From sequence record LC739534.1: a stretch of 64,000 nucleotides of DNA; one strand, 5' to 3'. The translations under genes were made by a program, and so were the position numbers. Shown here in pieces: positions 3,128 to 59,495 of the stretch; position 1 is the first letter of the stretch, and each line of letters opens with the position of its first letter. Origin of the DNA: Escherichia phage phiWec181. Below the pieces are notes generated by a model. It saw only the letters and a program-made list of their open reading frames with translations. It was not told the origin of the DNA and did not search any database.

Positions 3128-3384
3128 ATTTTGTAATTTACGGCAAACCAAATTGCCAGTTCTGTGAAATGTCCAAACAACTCTTAACTATGCGTGAAAA
3201 AGAGTTTGAATATCTGACATTAGATCAGGACTATGATTTTGAAGTGATGACTCAAGCAGTGATCGCAGCAACAGGAATTGCACCTCGCACCTTCCCGCAG
3301 ATTTTTGTGGAAGAGCTTGGAGCAGTAACCCACGTAGGCGGTTTTACCGAACTGCGTGATTTCATGGCTCAAATTGCGGAGTAA
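3124..3384 (+). CDS. glutaredoxin/thioredoxin-like protein (NrdC/NrdH-like)
   Basis: 86 aa with CQFC redox motif near N-terminus, same layout as T4 NrdC thioredoxin; ATGA overlap with rfbD. Confidence 0.65.
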   Translation: MNFVIYGKPNCQFCEMSKQLLTMREKEFEYLTLDQDYDFEVMTQAVIAATGIAPRTFPQIFVEELGAVTHVGGFTELRDFMAQIAE

Positions 3385-3547: not shown

Positions 3548-4051
3548 ATGGCTAAAAAAGTAGTAGATGAGTTTGACATGTTGGCTGTTGATGAAGGACT
3601 GAAGCTGACTGTTTACCCAGACACCTTGGGATATTGGACAGTCGGCATTGGACACCTCTTAACTAAAAAGAAAGATAAGGCGGAAGCTATTCGTATTCTG
3701 GATGCTCTTGTTGGTCGCAAGACTAACGGAGTTATCACAGAGAAAGAAGCCCGTGCTATCTTTGCTGACGATGTTGAAAAGGCGAAAAAACAGATTAAAA
3801 ACAGTTCCATTCTTGCCCCAATTTATGATAAGGTGAGTGAAACCCGTAAACTGGCAATCATCAATATGGTGTTCCAGTTGGGGTTAACAGGAACGGAAGG
3901 CTTTAAAAATAGCTTGACTTTAATCAGTAATTCGTACTATACTCAAGCTGGTAAAAACATGAGAGCCAGTAAATGGTACTCTCAAACGCCAAACCGTGCA
4001 GAACGAGTAATCAAGGTTCTAACATCTGGGACTCTTGATTCTTACAACTAA
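3548..4051 (+). CDS. e: T4-type lysozyme (endolysin, GH24 muramidase)
   Basis: MLAVDEGLKLTVYPDTLGYWTVGIGHLLTK...ITEKEA...INMVFQLG...SKWYSQTPNRAERVI aligns along whole length with T4 lysozyme. Confidence 0.9.
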   Translation: MAKKVVDEFDMLAVDEGLKLTVYPDTLGYWTVGIGHLLTKKKDKAEAIRILDALVGRKTNGVITEKEARAIFADDVEKAKKQIKNSSILAPIYDKVSETRKLAIINMVFQLGLTGTEGFKNSLTLISNSYYTQAGKNMRASKWYSQTPNRAERVIKVLTSGTLDSYN

Positions 4052-4088
4052 CAAAGGGGCGCAAGCCCCTTCTATAAGGAGTGCTACT

Positions 4089-4844
4089 ATGGGAAAAACA
4101 GCTACCGCTAAATCACCGCGCCAGAAGTTAGCTTCTAATGCGAAAGTAGAAAGTCGTTATGCTGCAAAAGCAGTTGGAAATGATGACTATCGTTTAGATG
4201 GGTTTTCACCAGAAGGAGATCAGCAGCAAATCGTTCAAAGTATGATCTGGAATGATCTTACAGTCGTAAATGCTCCAGCAGGGACAGGCAAGACTTCCGT
4301 GACTTTATGGAAAGCTTTGCAGATGCTTCGAGCAGGAGATTTCCGTAAGCTTCTTTTTATTAAAAACCCGACTGAAGTTGGTGATGATCAGATTGGTTTC
4401 CTTTCAGGAGATAAAACTGATAAACTGGCGGCGCACTACGAATCAACCAAACGAATCTTCCAGCAGTTTATGACTGCAAACAAATTAGAGAATGATATTG
4501 GTTCCGGTAAGATTGAACTTAATATCCCGAACTACCTACTGGGTGCTACCCTGGACAACACTATTGTGATCATTGATGAAGCACAGCTTATGTCTCCAGA
4601 AACATTAAAACTTCTGGTAGAGCGTGCAGGGATCAACACTCATGTTGTTGTTCTTGGAGATGTTCGTCAAACCTACGCTATCAAGAAGCGTGCAAACGGT
4701 TTGAAAGATCTTCTTGACAAAGTTGCCCCTGAAGGTGAAGATGGTGTTCGTGTCCCTCTGGTAGACTTTATCGGTTATGTGCAGTTAACCACAGATGACA
4801 ACAAACGATCTCGTTTGTCTAAGTTCATCACGGAAATTTATTAA
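4089..4844 (+). CDS. phoH: PhoH-like ATPase
   Basis: Walker A NAPAGTGKT and Walker B-like VIIDEAQ; SD AAGGAG upstream of ATG 4089. Confidence 0.8.
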   Translation: MGKTATAKSPRQKLASNAKVESRYAAKAVGNDDYRLDGFSPEGDQQQIVQSMIWNDLTVVNAPAGTGKTSVTLWKALQMLRAGDFRKLLFIKNPTEVGDDQIGFLSGDKTDKLAAHYESTKRIFQQFMTANKLENDIGSGKIELNIPNYLLGATLDNTIVIIDEAQLMSPETLKLLVERAGINTHVVVLGDVRQTYAIKKRANGLKDLLDKVAPEGEDGVRVPLVDFIGYVQLTTDDNKRSRLSKFITEIY

Positions 4845-37162: not shown

Positions 37163-37437
37163 TTCATTTATCATCGCTTTTCCCTATCAATTATTCTATA
37201 TATACCTGTTATTTTTGACACCCCCTTTGGTCAAATATTAATCGGCAAAATATCTGGGGGTACTCTATAAAATGATGCCCCCTGTTCCTGCAATTTATCG
37301 AGGAGAATATCATTCGACTATCATCGGCAAAGAGACAGAAAAGCCTTTGGTAGCAAGGATTTATGGCGAGTACGTCAGGACTGCTTAACGCGAATTTTTC
37401 GGCCCCTCCACTTCTGCGAGCCGGAATCCTCAAATAT

Positions 37438-37470
37438 CAATGAGAATAATTATCATTATCATTCGTATTC
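37438..37470. promoter_or_regulatory. Fur-box-like palindromic operator motif
   Basis: AATGAGAATAATTATCATTATCATT: 16/19 identity to Fur consensus GATAATGATAATCATTATC; related copies at 52026..52140. Confidence 0.35.
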
Positions 37471-37859
37471 AATAACTTAGGCGATCTTTTCCCCTGCTAT
37501 AAGGTCGGGCCTAACTTAACCATCACTTTTCAAACAATCCTTTATCAATCAACTACTTAACAACCTAAACATATGATTACTACGGTGTAAAGGTGCCGCC
37601 CATAACAGACTACCTATAAAATAGATGAGAATGATTATTATTCAGACAATTCTTACAACAAATCGACCAACAAATCAAGAATTTTCTTATTTTTATTCAC
37701 GTTTAAGAGAACGTGCTCAACATTCCGCTACGCGTAACGGTTCGCCCCCAAAAGATTAGCCTTTGCTTTCCTGTATATTTATACACTATGTGCAAGGTGT
37801 CGCTACACGCTCGCCTTGCCCCGCATAATCCTTCACTGTGCTAATGATTTCATAGTGCA

Positions 37860-38060
37860 ACAATAACACTTATTATTATATTACGCTTAATTATTCTTAC
37901 ATACAATGCTAATAATAAGCCAGCGTAATTAGTGTAAGCGTAATACGCTTGCAATAATTGCAAGCTACATAATCACAAGAAATAACTATCACCGATAGTT
38001 ATGATTGTGGGGGTGTAGTTGGCTTATTATTAGCTCGCTACGTGTCCGGCGTAGCGTGCT
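37860..38060. repeat. cluster of four distinct perfect palindromes in non-coding DNA
   Basis: AAGCGTA-a-TACGCTT, GCTTGCAAT-a-ATTGCAAGC, ATAACTATC-acc-GATAGTTAT, CGCTACG-N7-CGTAGCG within ~120 bp. Confidence 0.45.
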
Positions 38061-38099
38061 AATGATGAGGCTTGGAATGATTCATTTTGCAATTATTAC

Positions 38100-38480
38100 A
38101 GTCTTCACTATTTTGATAATAGTTGTTCTTTTAATGGTTTCATTTGTTATCGTTAGTTAGTTGGTTGTTTTGTAGTGTTATCGTTATCTTGCTTAGTATT
38201 CATCACGGTTTGATTGTTTGTCGTTATCAATCATCTTTCTATTATTCCTTTGATTATGATTAGTTTGCTTATTGTTTTAGGTTGTTGGTTGGTTAGTTGT
38301 TGCGAACTATTATCAACATTATAGTTATGCACTTATATTGCATAGATACGCAAGGGTAGATGATAATGGTTATCATTGCACTGGAAAGGAAGAAAACAGC
38401 CTTTTTCGGTTGTTTGTTGTTGGTTGTTGATCTATTTTAACCGCTCTAAATAGCTCTCTAACAGCCTGTTTACCTGGGGT
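38100..38480. repeat. G+T-rich low-complexity tract with reiterated GTTATC / GGTTGG motifs (iteron-like)
   Basis: Multiple GTTATC(G/A) and GTTGTTGG repeats; no ORF with SD on either strand. Confidence 0.4.
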
Positions 38481-38583
38481 GTATGGTTATTCGTTTGCTG
38501 GTTGATTAGCTCGATACCGCGATTTATTCAGTTTTGTTCTGTGTCGGTTTTTCATAGGCGGAATCTATCAACATTGTTCGGGC

Positions 38584-38612
38584 AAAAAGAAAGGGCGCTT
38601 GGTGCGCCCCTT
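38584..38612 (-). terminator. rho-independent terminator
   Basis: AAGGGGCGC-ACCAA-GCGCCCTT hairpin followed by TTTCTTTTT on minus strand, just after CDS 38626..39045. Confidence 0.55.
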
Positions 38613-38625
38613 GTTTTGTTGTCGA

Positions 38626-51504: not shown

Positions 51505-51771
51505 ATGACAACTACTACATTACACCTTATGCACTCGTTAGGCTGGCAAGGCGGCACGGTCCACCAGGTAGCAAGCGCAACGGGCTTAAAGGTTGAAACA
51601 GTTCTCAACCTGGGCGATCATAAAGTGGAAGAGATAGACCATTTTGATCCGTTCGCTGATGGTTATCTCTGGGCTTGCAGTGGCGGCGGGGAAAGCAAGA
51701 TACCGCCAGCCGCGCGGGGCGATATGCATTTTTGGTTAGGTGTTCTCTCCTGGCAAGAAAACAAAAAATAA
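51505..51771 (+). CDS. hypothetical protein (88 aa) in GC-rich island, opposite strand to neighbours
   Basis: ATG 51505 preceded by GAAGAAAGGG; codon composition visibly more GC-rich than surrounding genes. Confidence 0.35.
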   Translation: MTTTTLHLMHSLGWQGGTVHQVASATGLKVETVLNLGDHKVEEIDHFDPFADGYLWACSGGGESKIPPAARGDMHFWLGVLSWQENKK

Positions 51772-51773
51772 TC

Positions 51774-51802
51774 TTGACAAGCCCAGGGATCGGGCTTATA
51801 CT
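51774..51802 (+). promoter_or_regulatory. near-consensus sigma70 promoter on + strand with no downstream SD-led ORF
   Basis: TTGACA, exactly 17-nt spacer, TATACT; downstream ~150 nt GC-rich with no convincing ORF. Confidence 0.5.
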
Positions 51803-52025
51803 GTTTTACATACAGAAGAGGAAGCGCCACCCCACGGCGTAAAGGCGGGGCTAACATACCAGGGGCACTGGTTGGAAGGTCGATCGCCGGGAGGCTGGGC
51901 GCTATATATTTGTAAAGAAATGTAAAGATAAAATAATCGCTTGCTTTCCTGGCTGGATCTGTTATTCTTATTACATGGCGAGGGGACACGGGAGCGCGAG
52001 ACAATCACCGGACCTGCCCGTCATT

Positions 52026-52140
52026 CTGCAAATGAGAAAAATTCTCATTTGCAAATAAGACTCATTCGCATTTAATAATTGAATGAGAATCATTCTCATT
52101 CTCATTCGTATTTCGATTTTAAGTGAGAATAATTCTCATT
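52026..52140. promoter_or_regulatory. three palindromic operator-like sites (AATGAGAAT-n-ATTCTCATT), Fur-box-like
   Basis: 27-bp perfect palindrome TGCAAATGAGAA-AAA-TTCTCATTTGCA at 52026..52052; further copies at 52082..52100 and 52121..52140. Confidence 0.45.
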
Positions 52141-52152
52141 TCGGTAATTTTC

Positions 52153-52338
52153 ACGTAAACTTTAGAATTTGCTTTTCAACTTTCACTTTTGTAAAAGCAA
52201 AAAAACTTTAAATACCTGGTGCGCGCGACTTTTTAAAAAATTTTTCTCGGTTTTTTGCTTTGAAATCTGGCCCACCAATTTGAGATAGTGTACGTAAACT
52301 TTAGAATTTGGTTTTGGATTCTCACTTTTGTAAACTCG
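52153..52338. repeat. pair of ~46-bp direct repeats in non-coding DNA
   Basis: ACGTAAACTTTAGAATTTG(C/G)TTTT...TTCTCACTTTTGTAAA at 52153..52198 and 52292..52338; TTGAGATAGT also repeated. Confidence 0.45.
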
Positions 52339-52483
52339 TAAAAAGTTTAAATAATTGTAGGGATTTTGAGATAGTTTGCTTGTAAGGTTTGAGATAATCC
52401 TTCCCGAAGATGTTACGCAGCCTACAGCCTACCTGAATGCTCGTCTAACGAGATTAACTCTAAAAGATGAGTGTTGGTGTAGC

Positions 52484-52521
52484 TAAAGAGAAAAGGCTCT
52501 CTACGGTGTTGTAGGAGCCTT
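52484..52521 (-). terminator. rho-independent terminator after NADAR gene
   Basis: AAGGCTC-N15-GAGCCTT hairpin followed by TTTTCTCTTT on minus strand. Confidence 0.45.
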
Positions 52522-52591
52522 ATTTCTGTGGCACAAAGTTGACGTATTCTTTTTAAAAACGAATTTTTTCAAAATATCACGAATATCGCCT

Positions 52592-53307: not shown

Positions 53308-53673
53308 TTAGTCCATCCACCAGTAGCCATAAACTGCGTCTGCGTCGATGAGTTTGTGTTTGTTGTTCCGCATGTAGTCTAAGATAAGTAGACGTTTATT
53401 GTATCTGGAGAGATTATGACCCTCTTTTCCGCCATAGTCAAAATATTTTGCAAGACTTTTACACTCAAACAAAATCAGTTCGGGAGTTTCTTCACATTGG
53501 TCTGTCTGGTACACTTGACGGATGATCATGTATACGTCATCGTCTTCCGCTAAGTGCTCTACTGGTCCACACCCAGCAGGAATAAATTCATAGTCCCATC
53601 GAATCAGATGTTTCTCTACTGCTTCAAAGAAATCCATTTTTTCGCTACGCATGATCTGAACATCAATTAACAT
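53308..53673 (-). CDS. hypothetical protein (121 aa)
   Basis: SD CAGGAGGAAAA upstream. Confidence 0.5.
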   Translation of the reverse strand: MLIDVQIMRSEKMDFFEAVEKHLIRWDYEFIPAGCGPVEHLAEDDDVYMIIRQVYQTDQCEETPELILFECKSLAKYFDYGGKEGHNLSRYNKRLLILDYMRNNKHKLIDADAVYGYWWMD

Positions 53674-54679
53674 AATTTTCCTCCTGTCTCATTATTCCAC
53701 CTGCTTGGTTGATAGCACTTAAGACAACAGCCAAATCCTCACGCAGGAAGGTTTCACTATGACCGTCTTTCATGTGCAACGCTTCCACACAGCCGATAGA
53801 CGGTAGGATCTGATCAGTCTTAGATTTTAGCTTACTCTCTAACGCCCTGCAAGCCTGGTAGGACGGCAGATCAAACAATGCTACACGTTGCATAAAGTAG
53901 TTATTATTTGCATTCTGAATCTTCAAACGTATATCACTATCCTTTGCAATCCCCAGCTTGAAAGCTCCCGTATCTTCTCCATACTCATCAAGGATAACGT
54001 TGATGTAAAATTCTTGCTGTGATCTGCCTTTACATTCAGAACAACCATTCCCACTTAGATACTTATTAGGTGTTATCGTTTGTTCTCCGTGCTCACTACA
54101 TAAATATTTAAACTTAGACATGGTTCCCACCTTACCAACGAACCCTATAAACTGGTCCCCTCGTTCCTGGCAAGCTTCAGTCATACGGAAAATCCATTGC
54201 GCAGGAGTGTAACGATGGTTTTTAGAACAACGGCAAGCAAGCAGCCCATCTCTAAGACTGCTCCTCGTTACTTCAAACCTACCGTTACACACGCCAGCCT
54301 TTACATATTCGTCATGAGAACATACGGAACACTTAACTATCCAATAAGCCGCCCATCCTTTACTATCTAATCTATCACTACGATAATACTCACGCGGAAC
54401 GTTATCAGGACACGCTTTGTTAAAGGTTGTGATATGGATTGAATCATCAATTAAACATGTTTGCCTTATTGCTTCCACCCTACAACCTTTACAACCACTT
54501 CCTATTTTAGCATTATCTATAGAAGTTGTTCTCCATTCCCCATGTATAGAACATTCACAGGTTAGTTTAGTGCGTGCCCCCTTCCATTCACCATGCCACC
54601 CCGTAATGGTCCACGGTTTATCCTGGTAAGCTTGTTCTATTTCTTCCTGATATTCCTCCCAACTTTTAGCCCTCATCAT
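53663..54679 (-). CDS. T5orf172-like (GIY-YIG-related) domain protein with N-terminal CxxC zinc-ribbon repeats
   Basis: Repeated CxxC pairs, then C-terminal KLGIAKD...R...KDGHSETF resembling T5orf172; paralog of CDS 58247..59200. Confidence 0.5.
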   Translation of the reverse strand: MMRAKSWEEYQEEIEQAYQDKPWTITGWHGEWKGARTKLTCECSIHGEWRTTSIDNAKIGSGCKGCRVEAIRQTCLIDDSIHITTFNKACPDNVPREYYRSDRLDSKGWAAYWIVKCSVCSHDEYVKAGVCNGRFEVTRSSLRDGLLACRCSKNHRYTPAQWIFRMTEACQERGDQFIGFVGKVGTMSKFKYLCSEHGEQTITPNKYLSGNGCSECKGRSQQEFYINVILDEYGEDTGAFKLGIAKDSDIRLKIQNANNNYFMQRVALFDLPSYQACRALESKLKSKTDQILPSIGCVEALHMKDGHSETFLREDLAVVLSAINQAGGIMRQEENYVN

Positions 54680-57064: not shown

Positions 57065-57310
57065 CTAATAATGTTTTAAAGTCCACTCAATACCTGACGG
57101 GTAACTGCCTCGACAAATCTTACCATCGGAATGCCAGTTAATGCTATCAGGGAAAGTATGATTTAGTGTTTTTTCATGAGGAAGCCATTCTGTAGGCTTC
57201 TCTCCACCATTGATCCATACAAAACCTTCGTCTTCCAGTAAACCTAAAGCAAACTCCATCTCTTCTGCATCGTGAACCGTTACTTTCTGACCTTTCTGTA
57301 ATTTAATCAT
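57065..57310 (-). CDS. hypothetical protein (81 aa)
   Basis: SD TAAGGGGG upstream. Confidence 0.5.
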   Translation of the reverse strand: MIKLQKGQKVTVHDAEEMEFALGLLEDEGFVWINGGEKPTEWLPHEKTLNHTFPDSINWHSDGKICRGSYPSGIEWTLKHY

Positions 57311-57495: not shown

Positions 57496-57828
57496 TTAGC
57501 TCCACAAGTTATGAAAATATTCAGCAAACAGGCAACGACCTTCGATTTTATCCGTTTTGGTCATAACGGATTCAGGTTTAAAACCTTCAATCATTTGATC
57601 AATAATGGATAACCACTCCACTGTAGCTTCCCGCTCCTGCTCTTCTGTTAGTTTACGGTAATCTGACACATATTTAGCCCAAATCTTAGATGGGATAAGG
57701 ATATCCCCTCGTTCCACAATACGTGCCTTGAACGCGTACAGTCCAGCACAGATAATCGCGGAGAACGTATCATCCAGGTCTTGCAGATCTTCTACGCCAA
57801 ATTGTAATTCATCATGGATAATTTTCAT
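57496..57828 (-). CDS. hypothetical protein (110 aa)
   Basis: SD CGGGGAGAAAC upstream. Confidence 0.5.
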   Translation of the reverse strand: MKIIHDELQFGVEDLQDLDDTFSAIICAGLYAFKARIVERGDILIPSKIWAKYVSDYRKLTEEQEREATVEWLSIIDQMIEGFKPESVMTKTDKIEGRCLFAEYFHNLWS

Positions 57829-58112
57829 TTTGTTTCTCCCCGCTCTGCGTCTAATTTCAATAAGAAGGCTGCATACTCTTCCGAACCTTTGTGTAAGAAC
57901 ATACGATAAGAACTCACCAGTTTCTTCGTTGTTGTATAACGCTCCATTCCGCCGACAACCCCTGTACCGAGAGTGTAGAGAACAACACCTTCAACCCCAA
58001 CATGGGTTACGACTTCAACCATGTCCGTGTTATCCCAGTGATATTTAGGGGATACAATAAGATCGCCAACTGCTAATTTGATGTTTGCCGCTTCGTCTTG
58101 TGAATAGTACAT
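57825..58112 (-). CDS. hypothetical protein (95 aa)
   Basis: SD GAGAGGAGAA upstream. Confidence 0.5.
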   Translation of the reverse strand: MYYSQDEAANIKLAVGDLIVSPKYHWDNTDMVEVVTHVGVEGVVLYTLGTGVVGGMERYTTTKKLVSSYRMFLHKGSEEYAAFLLKLDAERGETK

Positions 58113-58157
58113 TTTGTTCTCCTCTCACATTAGGACACGTTTTGTGTCGATGGGTGT

Positions 58158-58186
58158 AGATTACGTGAGCACAAAGGGGTTGTCAA
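58158..58186 (-). promoter_or_regulatory. sigma70-type promoter
   Basis: Minus strand TTGACA, 17 nt, TAATCT upstream of CDS 57825..58112. Confidence 0.45.
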
Positions 58187-58194
58187 CTACTTAT

Positions 58195-58222
58195 TGACAA
58201 AAATTTCTAAACGTTGTAAATT
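58195..58222 (+). promoter_or_regulatory. sigma70-type promoter, divergent from 58158..58186
   Basis: TTGACA, 16 nt, TAAATT upstream of + strand CDS 58247. Confidence 0.45.
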
Positions 58223-58246
58223 AAAAACATCTACAAAGGAGGAAAC

Positions 58247-59200
58247 ATGAAATACGAAGATTTTAAACAAATAGTTAAAGACGATGTGGTATTTGAGAAC
58301 TTACAGGAAGGTTGTGAAGTCTTAGGTTGGACAGAAAGAGATAGAAACTTTGCAAAAATATACGTAATACGTTGTAGTGTTTGTGCCAAAGACCCCGAAA
58401 TGTATGGAGATGGTCTTTTTACAGCTACAAAAGGGCGTTTAGTGAAAGGTCAGAAATGTTGCGCGTGCGCTGTATCCTTTAAATACAGTCAAAACCAACA
58501 CCTAATTCTGCTAAACAGGCATTTAAGTGTCGCAGGGTACAGCATAGTTTCTATTGGTGCTTGGGAGTGTTCTAAGACGAGAATAGAGTTTAGTTGTGAG
58601 AATGGACACACGAAGAACAGAACCCTGGCTCAAGCAAAGGTAGTAGAACCTTGTAAACAGTGTCTTGAAGAAGGCTGTACAAAACACAAACAAGATGAGG
58701 CAGAGGCAAAAATTATGAAGATAATAGAAGATAAATGTTTACCTTATGTATTTGTAGGGTGGGATACTTCTTACAAGAATGTAACTTCAAAATTCAACCT
58801 CATCTGTTCGGATCACGGTTTAAAAACAATAAGATACGCTTGTTTCCTAAATGGTCATTTTTGTAACGAGTGTTCTGGTAGAAATTGCCTAAGTCTTTAT
58901 TTATTAGGAGTTTATGATAGAGACTTGTTGGTAGGTTTAAAATTTGGCATCTCTCAGAGTCCAGTAAGAAGGGTTCAACAGTTAAATAAAAGGAACTTAT
59001 TTAAATGTAAAATACTACAGATTTGGACTTTTACATCACATGATCAAGCTGTACGGATGGAAACATTATTAAAGAACACATTGCGAACTGGAATATTTAC
59101 TAAAAGAGAGATGAAAGATGGTCATACAGAAACCACAGAAGTTACTAATTTAGAAACCATAATGGACCTTATGACCTCATCTCATGGATTGGTTAGTTAA
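58247..59200 (+). CDS. T5orf172-like (GIY-YIG-related) domain protein with CxxC repeats; + strand gene inside minus-strand block
   Basis: Repeated CxxC pairs, then C-terminal KFGISQS...R...KDGHTETT; own divergent promoter; SD AAAGGAGGAAAC upstream. Confidence 0.5.
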   Translation: MKYEDFKQIVKDDVVFENLQEGCEVLGWTERDRNFAKIYVIRCSVCAKDPEMYGDGLFTATKGRLVKGQKCCACAVSFKYSQNQHLILLNRHLSVAGYSIVSIGAWECSKTRIEFSCENGHTKNRTLAQAKVVEPCKQCLEEGCTKHKQDEAEAKIMKIIEDKCLPYVFVGWDTSYKNVTSKFNLICSDHGLKTIRYACFLNGHFCNECSGRNCLSLYLLGVYDRDLLVGLKFGISQSPVRRVQQLNKRNLFKCKILQIWTFTSHDQAVRMETLLKNTLRTGIFTKREMKDGHTETTEVTNLETIMDLMTSSHGLVS

Positions 59201-59495
59201 CAAAAACCTTAACATTTCCGATGTTCTTGCTGACTTCTTGTGAGAACATTGAAAGTACCTTGTCAAGCAGTTTTACTAATTCATTTGTAATTTGTTCCTC
59301 TGAACGAGAAGAAGTAAGTACCTTACTCTCACCAACGATGTGCATCACCTTGATAGGAGCATTCAGGATAACATTGTGCTTTTCATCTTCTTCGAAAGAT
59401 GCTAACCACTTCTCATTATTCCCGTGCAAAGCCACGATAACACCAAAACCGTTAATAGTTTGTGAAATGTTCTTAGTTGCTAATGTAATGTTCAT
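59193..59495 (-). CDS. hypothetical protein (100 aa)
   Basis: SD AAGAGAGGTGA upstream; 3' end overlaps 3' end of + strand gene by 8 nt. Confidence 0.5.
   Translation of the reverse strand: MNITLATKNISQTINGFGVIVALHGNNEKWLASFEEDEKHNVILNAPIKVMHIVGESKVLTSSRSEEQITNELVKLLDKVLSMFSQEVSKNIGNVKVFVN

Follow-up and report, generated by a model that had tools for sequence, protein, structure and literature searches.

The gene at positions 58247..59200 of the window (the whole stretch of phage DNA that was analyzed, 64,000 nucleotides in length) encodes a protein of 317 amino acids (aa) and is probably a freestanding homing endonuclease gene (HEG) of the CapR-zinc-finger/T5orf172 class of the GIY-YIG superfamily, carried on a cassette in the 3' end of a DUF7325 gene. 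An earlier note on this DNA had proposed a freestanding mobile, homing endonuclease-like insertion, and on the sequence evidence this proposal is supported by the states of the insertion slot in related phages, by diverged alleles at the same site, and by the domain architecture of the encoded protein. With 100% identity, the window matches Escherichia phage phiWec179 (LC739533.1, where 42325 is subtracted from the record position to give the window position), a member of Phapecoctavirus, Stephanstirmvirinae, in which the 317-aa product is annotated as a hypothetical protein (BDU12217.1). The genes that are central to the analysis are the following.

57825..58112, minus strand: left flanking gene, phage tudor domain (Pfam PF24144, E 1.4e-24)
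58247..59200, plus strand: endonuclease-like gene, ATG start, 317 aa, with three zinc modules and then a C-terminal nuclease domain
59193..59495, minus strand: target gene, DUF7325 family, with a 100-aa product and the insertion close to the 3' end (Pfam PF24011, E 7.6e-18)
53663..54679, minus strand: distant paralog, a second freestanding endonuclease-like gene, with CapR x3 and a T5orf172-like C-terminus

The local observations from which the mobile-insertion proposal had started hold up in the deposited annotation. In the ~42 kb between 16979 and 59495, all deposited coding sequences are on the minus strand, the exceptions being 58247..59200 and an 88-aa open reading frame (ORF; 51505-51771), so that the gene is indeed the sole sizeable one on the plus strand; its 3' overlap of 8 nt with the convergent ORF 59193..59495, described as a small early gene, spans exactly 59193-59200. 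The GC skew of the gene is reversed relative to the surroundings, and its GC content is somewhat lower. The claimed paralogy with 53663..54679 is true but distant (28% identity in BLASTP over the C-terminal 144 aa, E 2e-14); CapR domains are present in both products, and the paralog itself is an indel relative to Escherichia phage phiWec188. A tblastn search of the window returned 53663-54679 alone and no third paralog. Comparison of the 317-aa gene with a 74% identical allele from a metagenomic contig (L005, discussed below) yielded a dN/dS of 0.10 at a pS of 0.67 (0.668), which is near saturation; this ratio indicates purifying selection on the encoded protein, so that the ORF is neither a chance ORF nor a decaying relic.

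The encoded protein consists of three zinc-finger modules, predicted to bind DNA, and a C-terminal putative nuclease domain of the GIY-YIG type, with the catalytic arginine and glutamate intact.

58307..58471, plus strand: CapR-homology zinc finger (aa 21-75), the best PF21817 stretch
58556..58876, plus strand: second and third zinc modules, both of the C-x(2-3)-H...C-x2-C type (C117/H121/C136/C139 and C187/H190/C206/C209)
58886..59179, plus strand: GIY-YIG / T5orf172-like nuclease domain (aa 214-311; Y218, K232-F-G234-I235, R242, E272, G292-H-T-E295)

The Pfam CapR model (PF21817) matches the protein in two stretches with E 1.5e-20 (73.6 bits against a cut-off of 24.2), and the translation contains C43-x2-C46, 25 residues and C72-x-C74, which fits the CxxC-(24-26)-CxC motif needed for DNA binding by CapR (Netter et al. 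2021, PMC8096241). The second and third zinc modules are joined by a long predicted helix (aa 137-162), and the treble-clef models DUF723 and DUF4379 are matched by members of the family. PHROGs assigns the protein to phrog_681, 'endonuclease' (E 6e-59).

The family was delineated by a profile search of 5.8 billion proteins, which returned 45 relatives; the alignment was built on 41 sequences. All 41 homologs match CapR, 13 of the 41 match T5orf172 at E <= 0.01 (best 2.4e-6), and 8 match MUG113 (best E 6.6e-9). In the protein from the window, residues 229-300 match MUG113 (PF13455; 19.4 bits, gathering cut-off 22.3) and T5orf172 (PF10544; 15.1 bits, cut-off 20), both of the Pfam GIY-YIG clan, below threshold, and one homolog (P0003) exceeds the MUG113 cut-off with 22.9. 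Thus, the label "T5orf172" that had been attached to this gene is warranted at the level of the family and the fold but not by the Pfam score of the lone protein. In the 41-sequence alignment, C117, Y218, G234, R242, E272 and E295 are invariant, and K232, I235, G292, T296, C136 and C139 are nearly so. The residues that define the GIY-YIG motif, namely the strand-1 tyrosine, the K/Y-x-G of strand 2, the catalytic arginine and the catalytic glutamate, correspond to Y218, K232-F-G234, R242 and E295, respectively. An AlphaFold2 model derived from the family alignment (mean pLDDT 93.4) displays the GIY-YIG alpha/beta fold in the predicted nuclease domain; a Foldseek search with the full-length model as the query gave no significant match. 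The predicted domains therefore comprise a nuclease and a separate DNA-binding region, the combination that is expected of a HEG.

The gene is present sporadically, at one defined site for which intact empty alleles exist. Among the phages, phiWec179 and phiWec186, which are nearly identical to each other, are the only two in which tblastn detected it, the best phage match after these being 35% identical; in ~130 relatives, the slot is empty or holds another gene, and phiWec188, the closest relative, lacks the 317-aa gene. The flanking genes are directly adjacent in ESCO5, phi92 and many other phages, an arrangement that represents the empty site; in ESCO5, 12 nt separate the DUF7325 gene from the downstream tudor-domain gene. 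With 591 nt of ESCO5 as the empty-site query, the counterpart was contiguous, that is, empty, in 28 of the 40 listed records that cover the query fully, including phi92 (genus Justusliebigvirus), and spanned ~1,120 nt in 11, corresponding to a 163-aa gene in the slot. This occupant, an unrelated minus-strand gene of 163-165 aa, fills the spacer in phiWec188, PsgM04F, phAPEC8 and others; it was considered as another nuclease and rejected, its only matches being phrog_11258 (unknown function in PHROGs) and, weakly, DUF7337, with no nuclease match. The comparison of presence and absence at the exact position thus comes out in favor of a mobile, homing endonuclease-like insertion, and the finding that the earlier note had named as fatal to this proposal, a gene at the same locus in all relatives, is not what is seen, given that empty-site alleles are the majority.

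As judged from the alignment with empty alleles, the insert is not intergenic: it lies within the 3' end of the convergent DUF7325 gene, the C-terminus of which is rewritten.

58125..58156, minus strand: remnant of the original DUF7325 3' end (...PIDTKRVLM and stop), stranded between the tudor gene and the cassette
58157..58186, no strand assigned: left copy of the duplicated target segment in degenerate form (23 scrambled nt, then TTGTCAA)
59193..59243, minus strand: cassette-borne replacement DUF7325 tail, SQEVSKNIGNVKVFVN and stop, overlapping the endonuclease stop codon
59244..59270, minus strand: right copy of the target segment (coding for ...LLDKVLSMF), 6/27 mismatches to phiWec188

Homology to the empty alleles stops at 58156 and restarts at 59245, which delimits a cassette of ~1.09 kb (~58157-59244 of the window). 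The remnant aligns to the DUF7325 3' ends of ESCO5 and phiWec188 over 40 nt with 97.5% identity, and from this displaced old tail together with the replaced one, an insertion event is evident in the alignments. What the cassette brings to the interrupted gene, as read from the translation, is a substitute C-terminal tail and a stop codon. The new tail is common only to the HEG-bearing alleles, those of the window, of L005 and of Klebsiella phage FKP3. Across 135 phage records, the listed HEG-less phages align with the DUF7325 protein of the window no further than about residue 85-89, except for Klebsiella phage KP13-16, and the six HEG-less tails that were translated, KP13-16 included, all are of the type (D/E)NAP...K(R/K)VL(M/AF) followed by a stop. 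The KP13-16 match, which extends to residue 98 in tblastn, was pursued as a lead to a donor lineage with the new tail as its natural C-terminus and was rejected because the tail of this phage is of the ancestral ENAPKDIKRVLAF type and there is no HEG.

In the window allele, the target segment is split by the insert. Its left copy has the same length and position as the intact copy in L005, with only ~8 of 23 nt identical; the changes in the right copy relative to phiWec188 include two amino acid replacements, and the next ~330 nt are 97-98.5% identical. In the comparison with phiWec188 by a 200-nt profile, the flanks of the cassette consist of mosaic patches, and the right flank retains 97-98.5% identity up to the junction; this profile overturned a single co-conversion tract that the first BLAST blocks (91-92% in the flanks, 98% in the background) had seemed to outline.

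The same site harbors strongly diverged alleles of the cassette. The 74% aa-identical allele (P0002) was found on five metagenomic contigs (L005-L009) with an ESCO5-like backbone, between the tudor and DUF7325 genes and with the same 8-nt overlap. Contig L005 (filled) and ESCO5 (empty) are 97% identical overall and show zero mismatches on either side of the cassette, over 646 nt on the left and 497 nt on the right, their differences near the cassette being confined to the duplicated target segment. Direct repeats of 27 nt, CAAACATCCGAAGAA[GG/CA]TTGTCAA[C/G]CA, flank the L005 cassette, and the two copies are 89% identical. A third allele is present in the Justusliebigvirus FKP3: its protein, only 33% identical and ranked third among the matches in the entire protein database, is encoded by a gene that converges on DUF7325 and overlaps it by 6 nt. 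The change of tail occurs at the same codon (...DLF followed by ERSLKEDKSDVKVYL and a stop), and what is left of the ancestral tail (TKKVLAF and stop) can still be recognized. The combination of anciently diverged cassette alleles with identical flanks of filled and empty sites is explained by a discrete unit that was either gained by homing or lost cleanly. The homologs in DU_PP_I, ABPH49, SSE121 and nepoznato as well as P0005 and P0026 were examined as potential alleles at the same target and discarded because they occupy unrelated loci; distant members of the family are located downstream of the DNA polymerase gene, among structural genes, in the tape-measure/Dit interval and at block boundaries.

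We regard the alternative of clean loss as rather unlikely. Under this scenario, the element is a relic that is no longer mobile: it entered the DUF7325 3' end once, in an ancestor of Stephanstirmvirinae, was inherited vertically or through ordinary recombination, was repeatedly deleted between the flanking direct repeats, and encodes a protein that is kept for some other benefit. Deletion between the 27-nt repeats of L005 could, in principle, regenerate an empty site; a single ancient origin is suggested by the junction codon that alleles with only 33% identity have in common; and the HEG and its DUF7325 neighbor have the same pS (0.668), which is likewise compatible with prolonged vertical co-inheritance and recurrent clean loss. 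However, by far the most frequent state of the slot is the empty one, found in every sampled lineage, including phi92, and all catalytic residues are under strong purifying selection, which a non-nuclease role would not require. Furthermore, at the position where both L005 repeat copies have CCG, the ESCO5 target has GTT, so that ESCO5 is not a simple product of repeat-mediated deletion from the L005 allele. A short co-conversion tract formed during gain fits this pair slightly better, loss through the repeats being possible in general.

The regulatory signals at the left edge of the cassette bear both on the freestanding character of the gene and on a different interpretation of its function.

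58180..58200, no strand assigned: palindrome TTGTCAAC-N6-TTGACAA at the left cassette edge, with a right arm that coincides with the -35 hexamer of the putative promoter of the endonuclease gene
58194..58222, plus strand: promoter-like site of the endonuclease gene, TTGACA-17-TAAATT, sigma-70-like, 10/12 matches
58236-58242, plus strand: AAGGAGG ribosome-binding site of the endonuclease gene

The earlier note had credited the gene with its own divergent promoter. The consensus match alone does not establish this, since 9 such matches were found against 4.9 +/- 2.4 expected and a single match is not significant by itself; what speaks for the promoter is that equivalent sites are kept in L005 (TTGACA-17-TAGATT) and FKP3 (TTGACA-18-TATACT). 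With promoter-like and ribosome-binding sites of its own that are kept in three alleles, and with no intron or intein, the gene is freestanding. A search of Rfam detected no intron match at the locus, and the cassette has no terminal inverted repeats and no tRNA; in view of these results, a transposon-like or intron-borne element was rejected.

In phages with the empty site, the DUF7325 3' end itself contains a promoter-like element, TTGACA-17-GATAAT (11/12), on the minus strand and facing the tudor gene, and the duplicated 27 nt are essentially the -35 hexamer and the spacer of this element. In L005, which shares the palindrome (as inverted repeat I14), the whole element survives on the left side of the cassette, back to back with the promoter-like site of the endonuclease gene, so that this cassette also keeps a promoter-like copy that faces the downstream genes; in the window, the -10 hexamer of the element has degenerated to TAATCT. 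Consensus promoter matches are common in this AT-rich DNA.

Given that the insertion point coincides with a promoter-like element, and that a palindrome links this element to the -35 hexamer of the HEG, the CapR-type fingers might recognize a promoter, similarly to CapR itself. It is conceivable, if doubtful, that the endonuclease also is a transcription factor that homes into its site and autorepresses itself or regulates the surrounding early operon. I-TevI is an autorepressor and regulator at its own promoter. Should such a dual role be borne out, the locus would be a tractable E. coli model for the conversion of HEG DNA-binding modules into regulators.

A related scenario, to which we assign a low likelihood, is that the protein is a domesticated HEG derivative that has ceased to be selfish and acts as a nuclease against competitors or satellites, similarly to Odn, or as a CapR-like regulator of early transcription. 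The dN/dS of 0.10 and the cassette-edge palindrome that overlaps two back-to-back promoter-like sites are compatible with domestication, and CapR and Odn are precedents for the co-option of domains of this family (PMC8096241, PMC8263062). Nevertheless, a useful gene would not be expected to occur in only 2 of ~135 related phage genomes, and a pure repressor would not need an invariant catalytic arginine and glutamate; as for a nuclease directed at competitors, marker exclusion is the same mechanism as homing. Finally, the view that this is an ordinary conserved phage gene, on the opposite strand by chance and with no mobile history, has virtually nothing to recommend it beyond an intact, expressed-looking ORF and is refuted by the comparative sequence data, given the majority of empty-site alleles, the insertion event to which the stranded 3' end and the new tail testify, and the absence of the gene from the closest relative, phiWec188.

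The preferred interpretation, a freestanding HEG, suggests the following route of propagation. The gene would be expressed from its own sigma-70-type promoter, and the three zinc modules of the product would recognize a long asymmetric site at the HEG-less junction (...CATTATCAAACATCCGAAGAACRTTGTCAAGCAG...). The DNA of a co-infecting HEG-less relative would then be cut by the C-terminal GIY-YIG-type domain, in which R242 and E295 are the putative catalytic residues, and recombinational repair would copy the cassette into the break. The insertion is likely to be tolerable or nearly neutral to the host phage because the interrupted gene regains an end.

The architecture in which CapR/DUF723 zinc fingers are combined with T5orf172 in HEG-like proteins, arranged as 'beads on a string', is known from ICP1 and many other phages, the putative T5orf172 HEGs of ICP1 with CapR-homology domains being Gp53, Gp121, Gp130, Gp165 and Gp174 (PMC8096241, PMC10448857). 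Similarly to the T5orf172 HEGs of ICP1 and of the set compiled by Barth et al. (2023), the protein described here has N-terminal zinc repeats (CapR/DUF723/DUF4379) and a C-terminal T5orf172-like nuclease domain and belongs to a group that is multi-copy in the genome, freestanding and sporadic among related phages. It differs from that set in coming from an E. coli Phapecoctavirus lineage, a genus not mentioned in the survey of Barth et al. 2023 (PMC10448857), in sharing at most ~35% identity with phage proteins outside phiWec179 and phiWec186, and in that the insertion site, the empty allele, the replaced tail and the direct repeat are resolved here to the nucleotide. In the papers on this class that were consulted, we found no evidence of cleavage or homing and no homing assay for CapR-type T5orf172 HEGs.

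CapR of the Vibrio cholerae satellite PLE is a transcriptional repressor that binds the -35 region of a promoter and has no nuclease domain (PMC8096241). The 317-aa protein shares the zinc-finger domain with this repressor, and its cassette junction coincides with promoter-like TTGACA elements; unlike PLE CapR, it retains the complete GIY-YIG-type domain along with the catalytic residues. Odn (ICP1 Gp88), in which glutamate E180 is experimentally required for cleavage, has a RepA_N-like DNA-binding domain, targets the satellite replication origin and is an anti-parasite nuclease, not a homing element (PMC8263062). A C-terminal domain of the T5orf172 type and the conserved catalytic arginine and glutamate are common to Odn and the protein from the window, which, in contrast to Odn, has zinc-finger modules instead of the RepA_N-like domain.

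Further afield, the GIY-YIG homing endonucleases of the T4 type (I-TevI, SegA-G) have an N-terminal catalytic domain and DNA-binding modules of the NUMOD/HTH kinds. The resemblance lies in the modular combination of nuclease and DNA-binding parts, in the freestanding location between or within phage genes and in the patchy presence in relatives; in the gene described here, however, the catalytic domain is C-terminal, the DNA-binding region consists of zinc treble-clef repeats, and the gene is antisense to the host operon. A parallel to the rewritten gene end comes from mitochondria: in 1994, Paquin et al. reportedly described a GIY-YIG ORF inserted at the 3' end of the Allomyces atp6 gene, where the ORF is said to supply a new C-terminal segment and the displaced original 3' end to persist downstream. 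In both cases, a new C-terminal coding segment is supplied and the old 3' end is left behind; in the organellar case, the new segment is fused in frame and homologous to the old one, whereas the phage tail is unrelated to its predecessor.

The gene therefore adds a member to an already described class, a well supported but ordinary addition that leaves the current understanding of these elements unchanged and provides a clean example rather than a surprise. A 'hypothetical protein' becomes annotatable as the product of a CapR/T5orf172-type homing endonuclease gene, and the class is extended from Vibrio, Aeromonas and T5-like phages to E. coli Phapecoctavirus and Justusliebigvirus, which are in therapy development. 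What the locus adds is nucleotide-level resolution of empty and filled alleles, a replacement tail, a stranded remnant and a flanking direct repeat, as well as the record of a single HEG lineage that has persisted in two genera at the same codon of a single target gene. It also illustrates a low-cost mode of insertion, in which the cassette lessens the cost to the host phage by carrying a substitute gene end. With filled and empty alleles in identical flanks, a third occupant of the slot and three diverged alleles at one target, these coliphages offer natural material from which the first homing assay of a CapR-type T5orf172 enzyme could come.

Between the tudor-domain gene and the DUF7325 gene, which in the empty-site phage ESCO5 are 12 nt apart, a third state was found besides the empty site and the one carrying the homing-endonuclease-like gene. 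In phiWec188, a close relative that does not have the endonuclease-like gene, the 12-nt spacer contains a gene for a protein of 163-165 aa that belongs to phrog_11258 (labeled "unknown function" in PHROG) and shows a weak match to DUF7337; the ribosome-binding site is duplicated along with the insertion. This gene is also carried by PsgM04F and phAPEC8 and, in all, by about one in four of the relatives sampled. The spacer appears to be a hot spot for insertions. The features considered here are as follows.

L002 (sequence from phiWec188) 3900-4391, corresponding to window ~58113-58124, minus strand: 163-165-aa gene in the tudor/DUF7325 spacer
L003 (sequence from ESCO5) 3351-3379, metagenomic contig L005 4912-4940 and window 58157-58187, minus strand: promoter-like element, TTGACA-17-GATAAT in empty-site phages
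window 53663-54679, minus strand: paralog of the endonuclease-like gene, with three CapR domains and a T5orf172-like C-terminus, an indel among relatives

In the empty-site phages, the near-consensus, promoter-like element falls within the DUF7325 gene, in the coding part of the 3' end, and follows an AT-rich stretch that shows 100% conservation; the endonuclease cassette duplicates the -35 hexamer and the spacer of this element.

The Stephanstirmvirinae locus is closely matched by genomes named as Pseudomonas, Acinetobacter or Campylobacter phages (OR584014.1, OP562383.1, MG065645.1, MG065650.1 and others), with nucleotide identities of 89.5% for PsgM04F and 98.8% for ABPW7, and 88% identity of the DUF7325 protein in Campylobacter phage B15; A145 is a weaker match (68% nucleotide identity across half of the query). 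The host labels of these records look doubtful.

An 81-aa gene of the window (57065-57310, minus strand), for which the PHROG search gave no match, is missing in phiWec188, ESCO5, L005 and the metagenomic contig L021, whose endonuclease-like gene is identical. Within the minus-strand block, ~1.4 kb (~37200-38620) contain no annotated CDS and no ORF of at least 75 aa, and yielded no match in Rfam and tRNA searches. The unannotated, AT-rich stretch 51772-52591 (GC about 0.32) includes two short tandem repeats with periods of 23 and 40 (52022-52140) and adjoins an 88-aa ORF (51505-51771), the only other annotated plus-strand ORF of this block.

The paralog is absent from phiWec188, where ~9 nt stand in place of ~1 kb; PsgM04F has a counterpart annotated as "endonuclease", and in L005 the slot is occupied by an allele with only 35% protein identity. 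The block at 54.7-58.1 kb (~3.5 kb) is thus flanked by two endonuclease-like genes.
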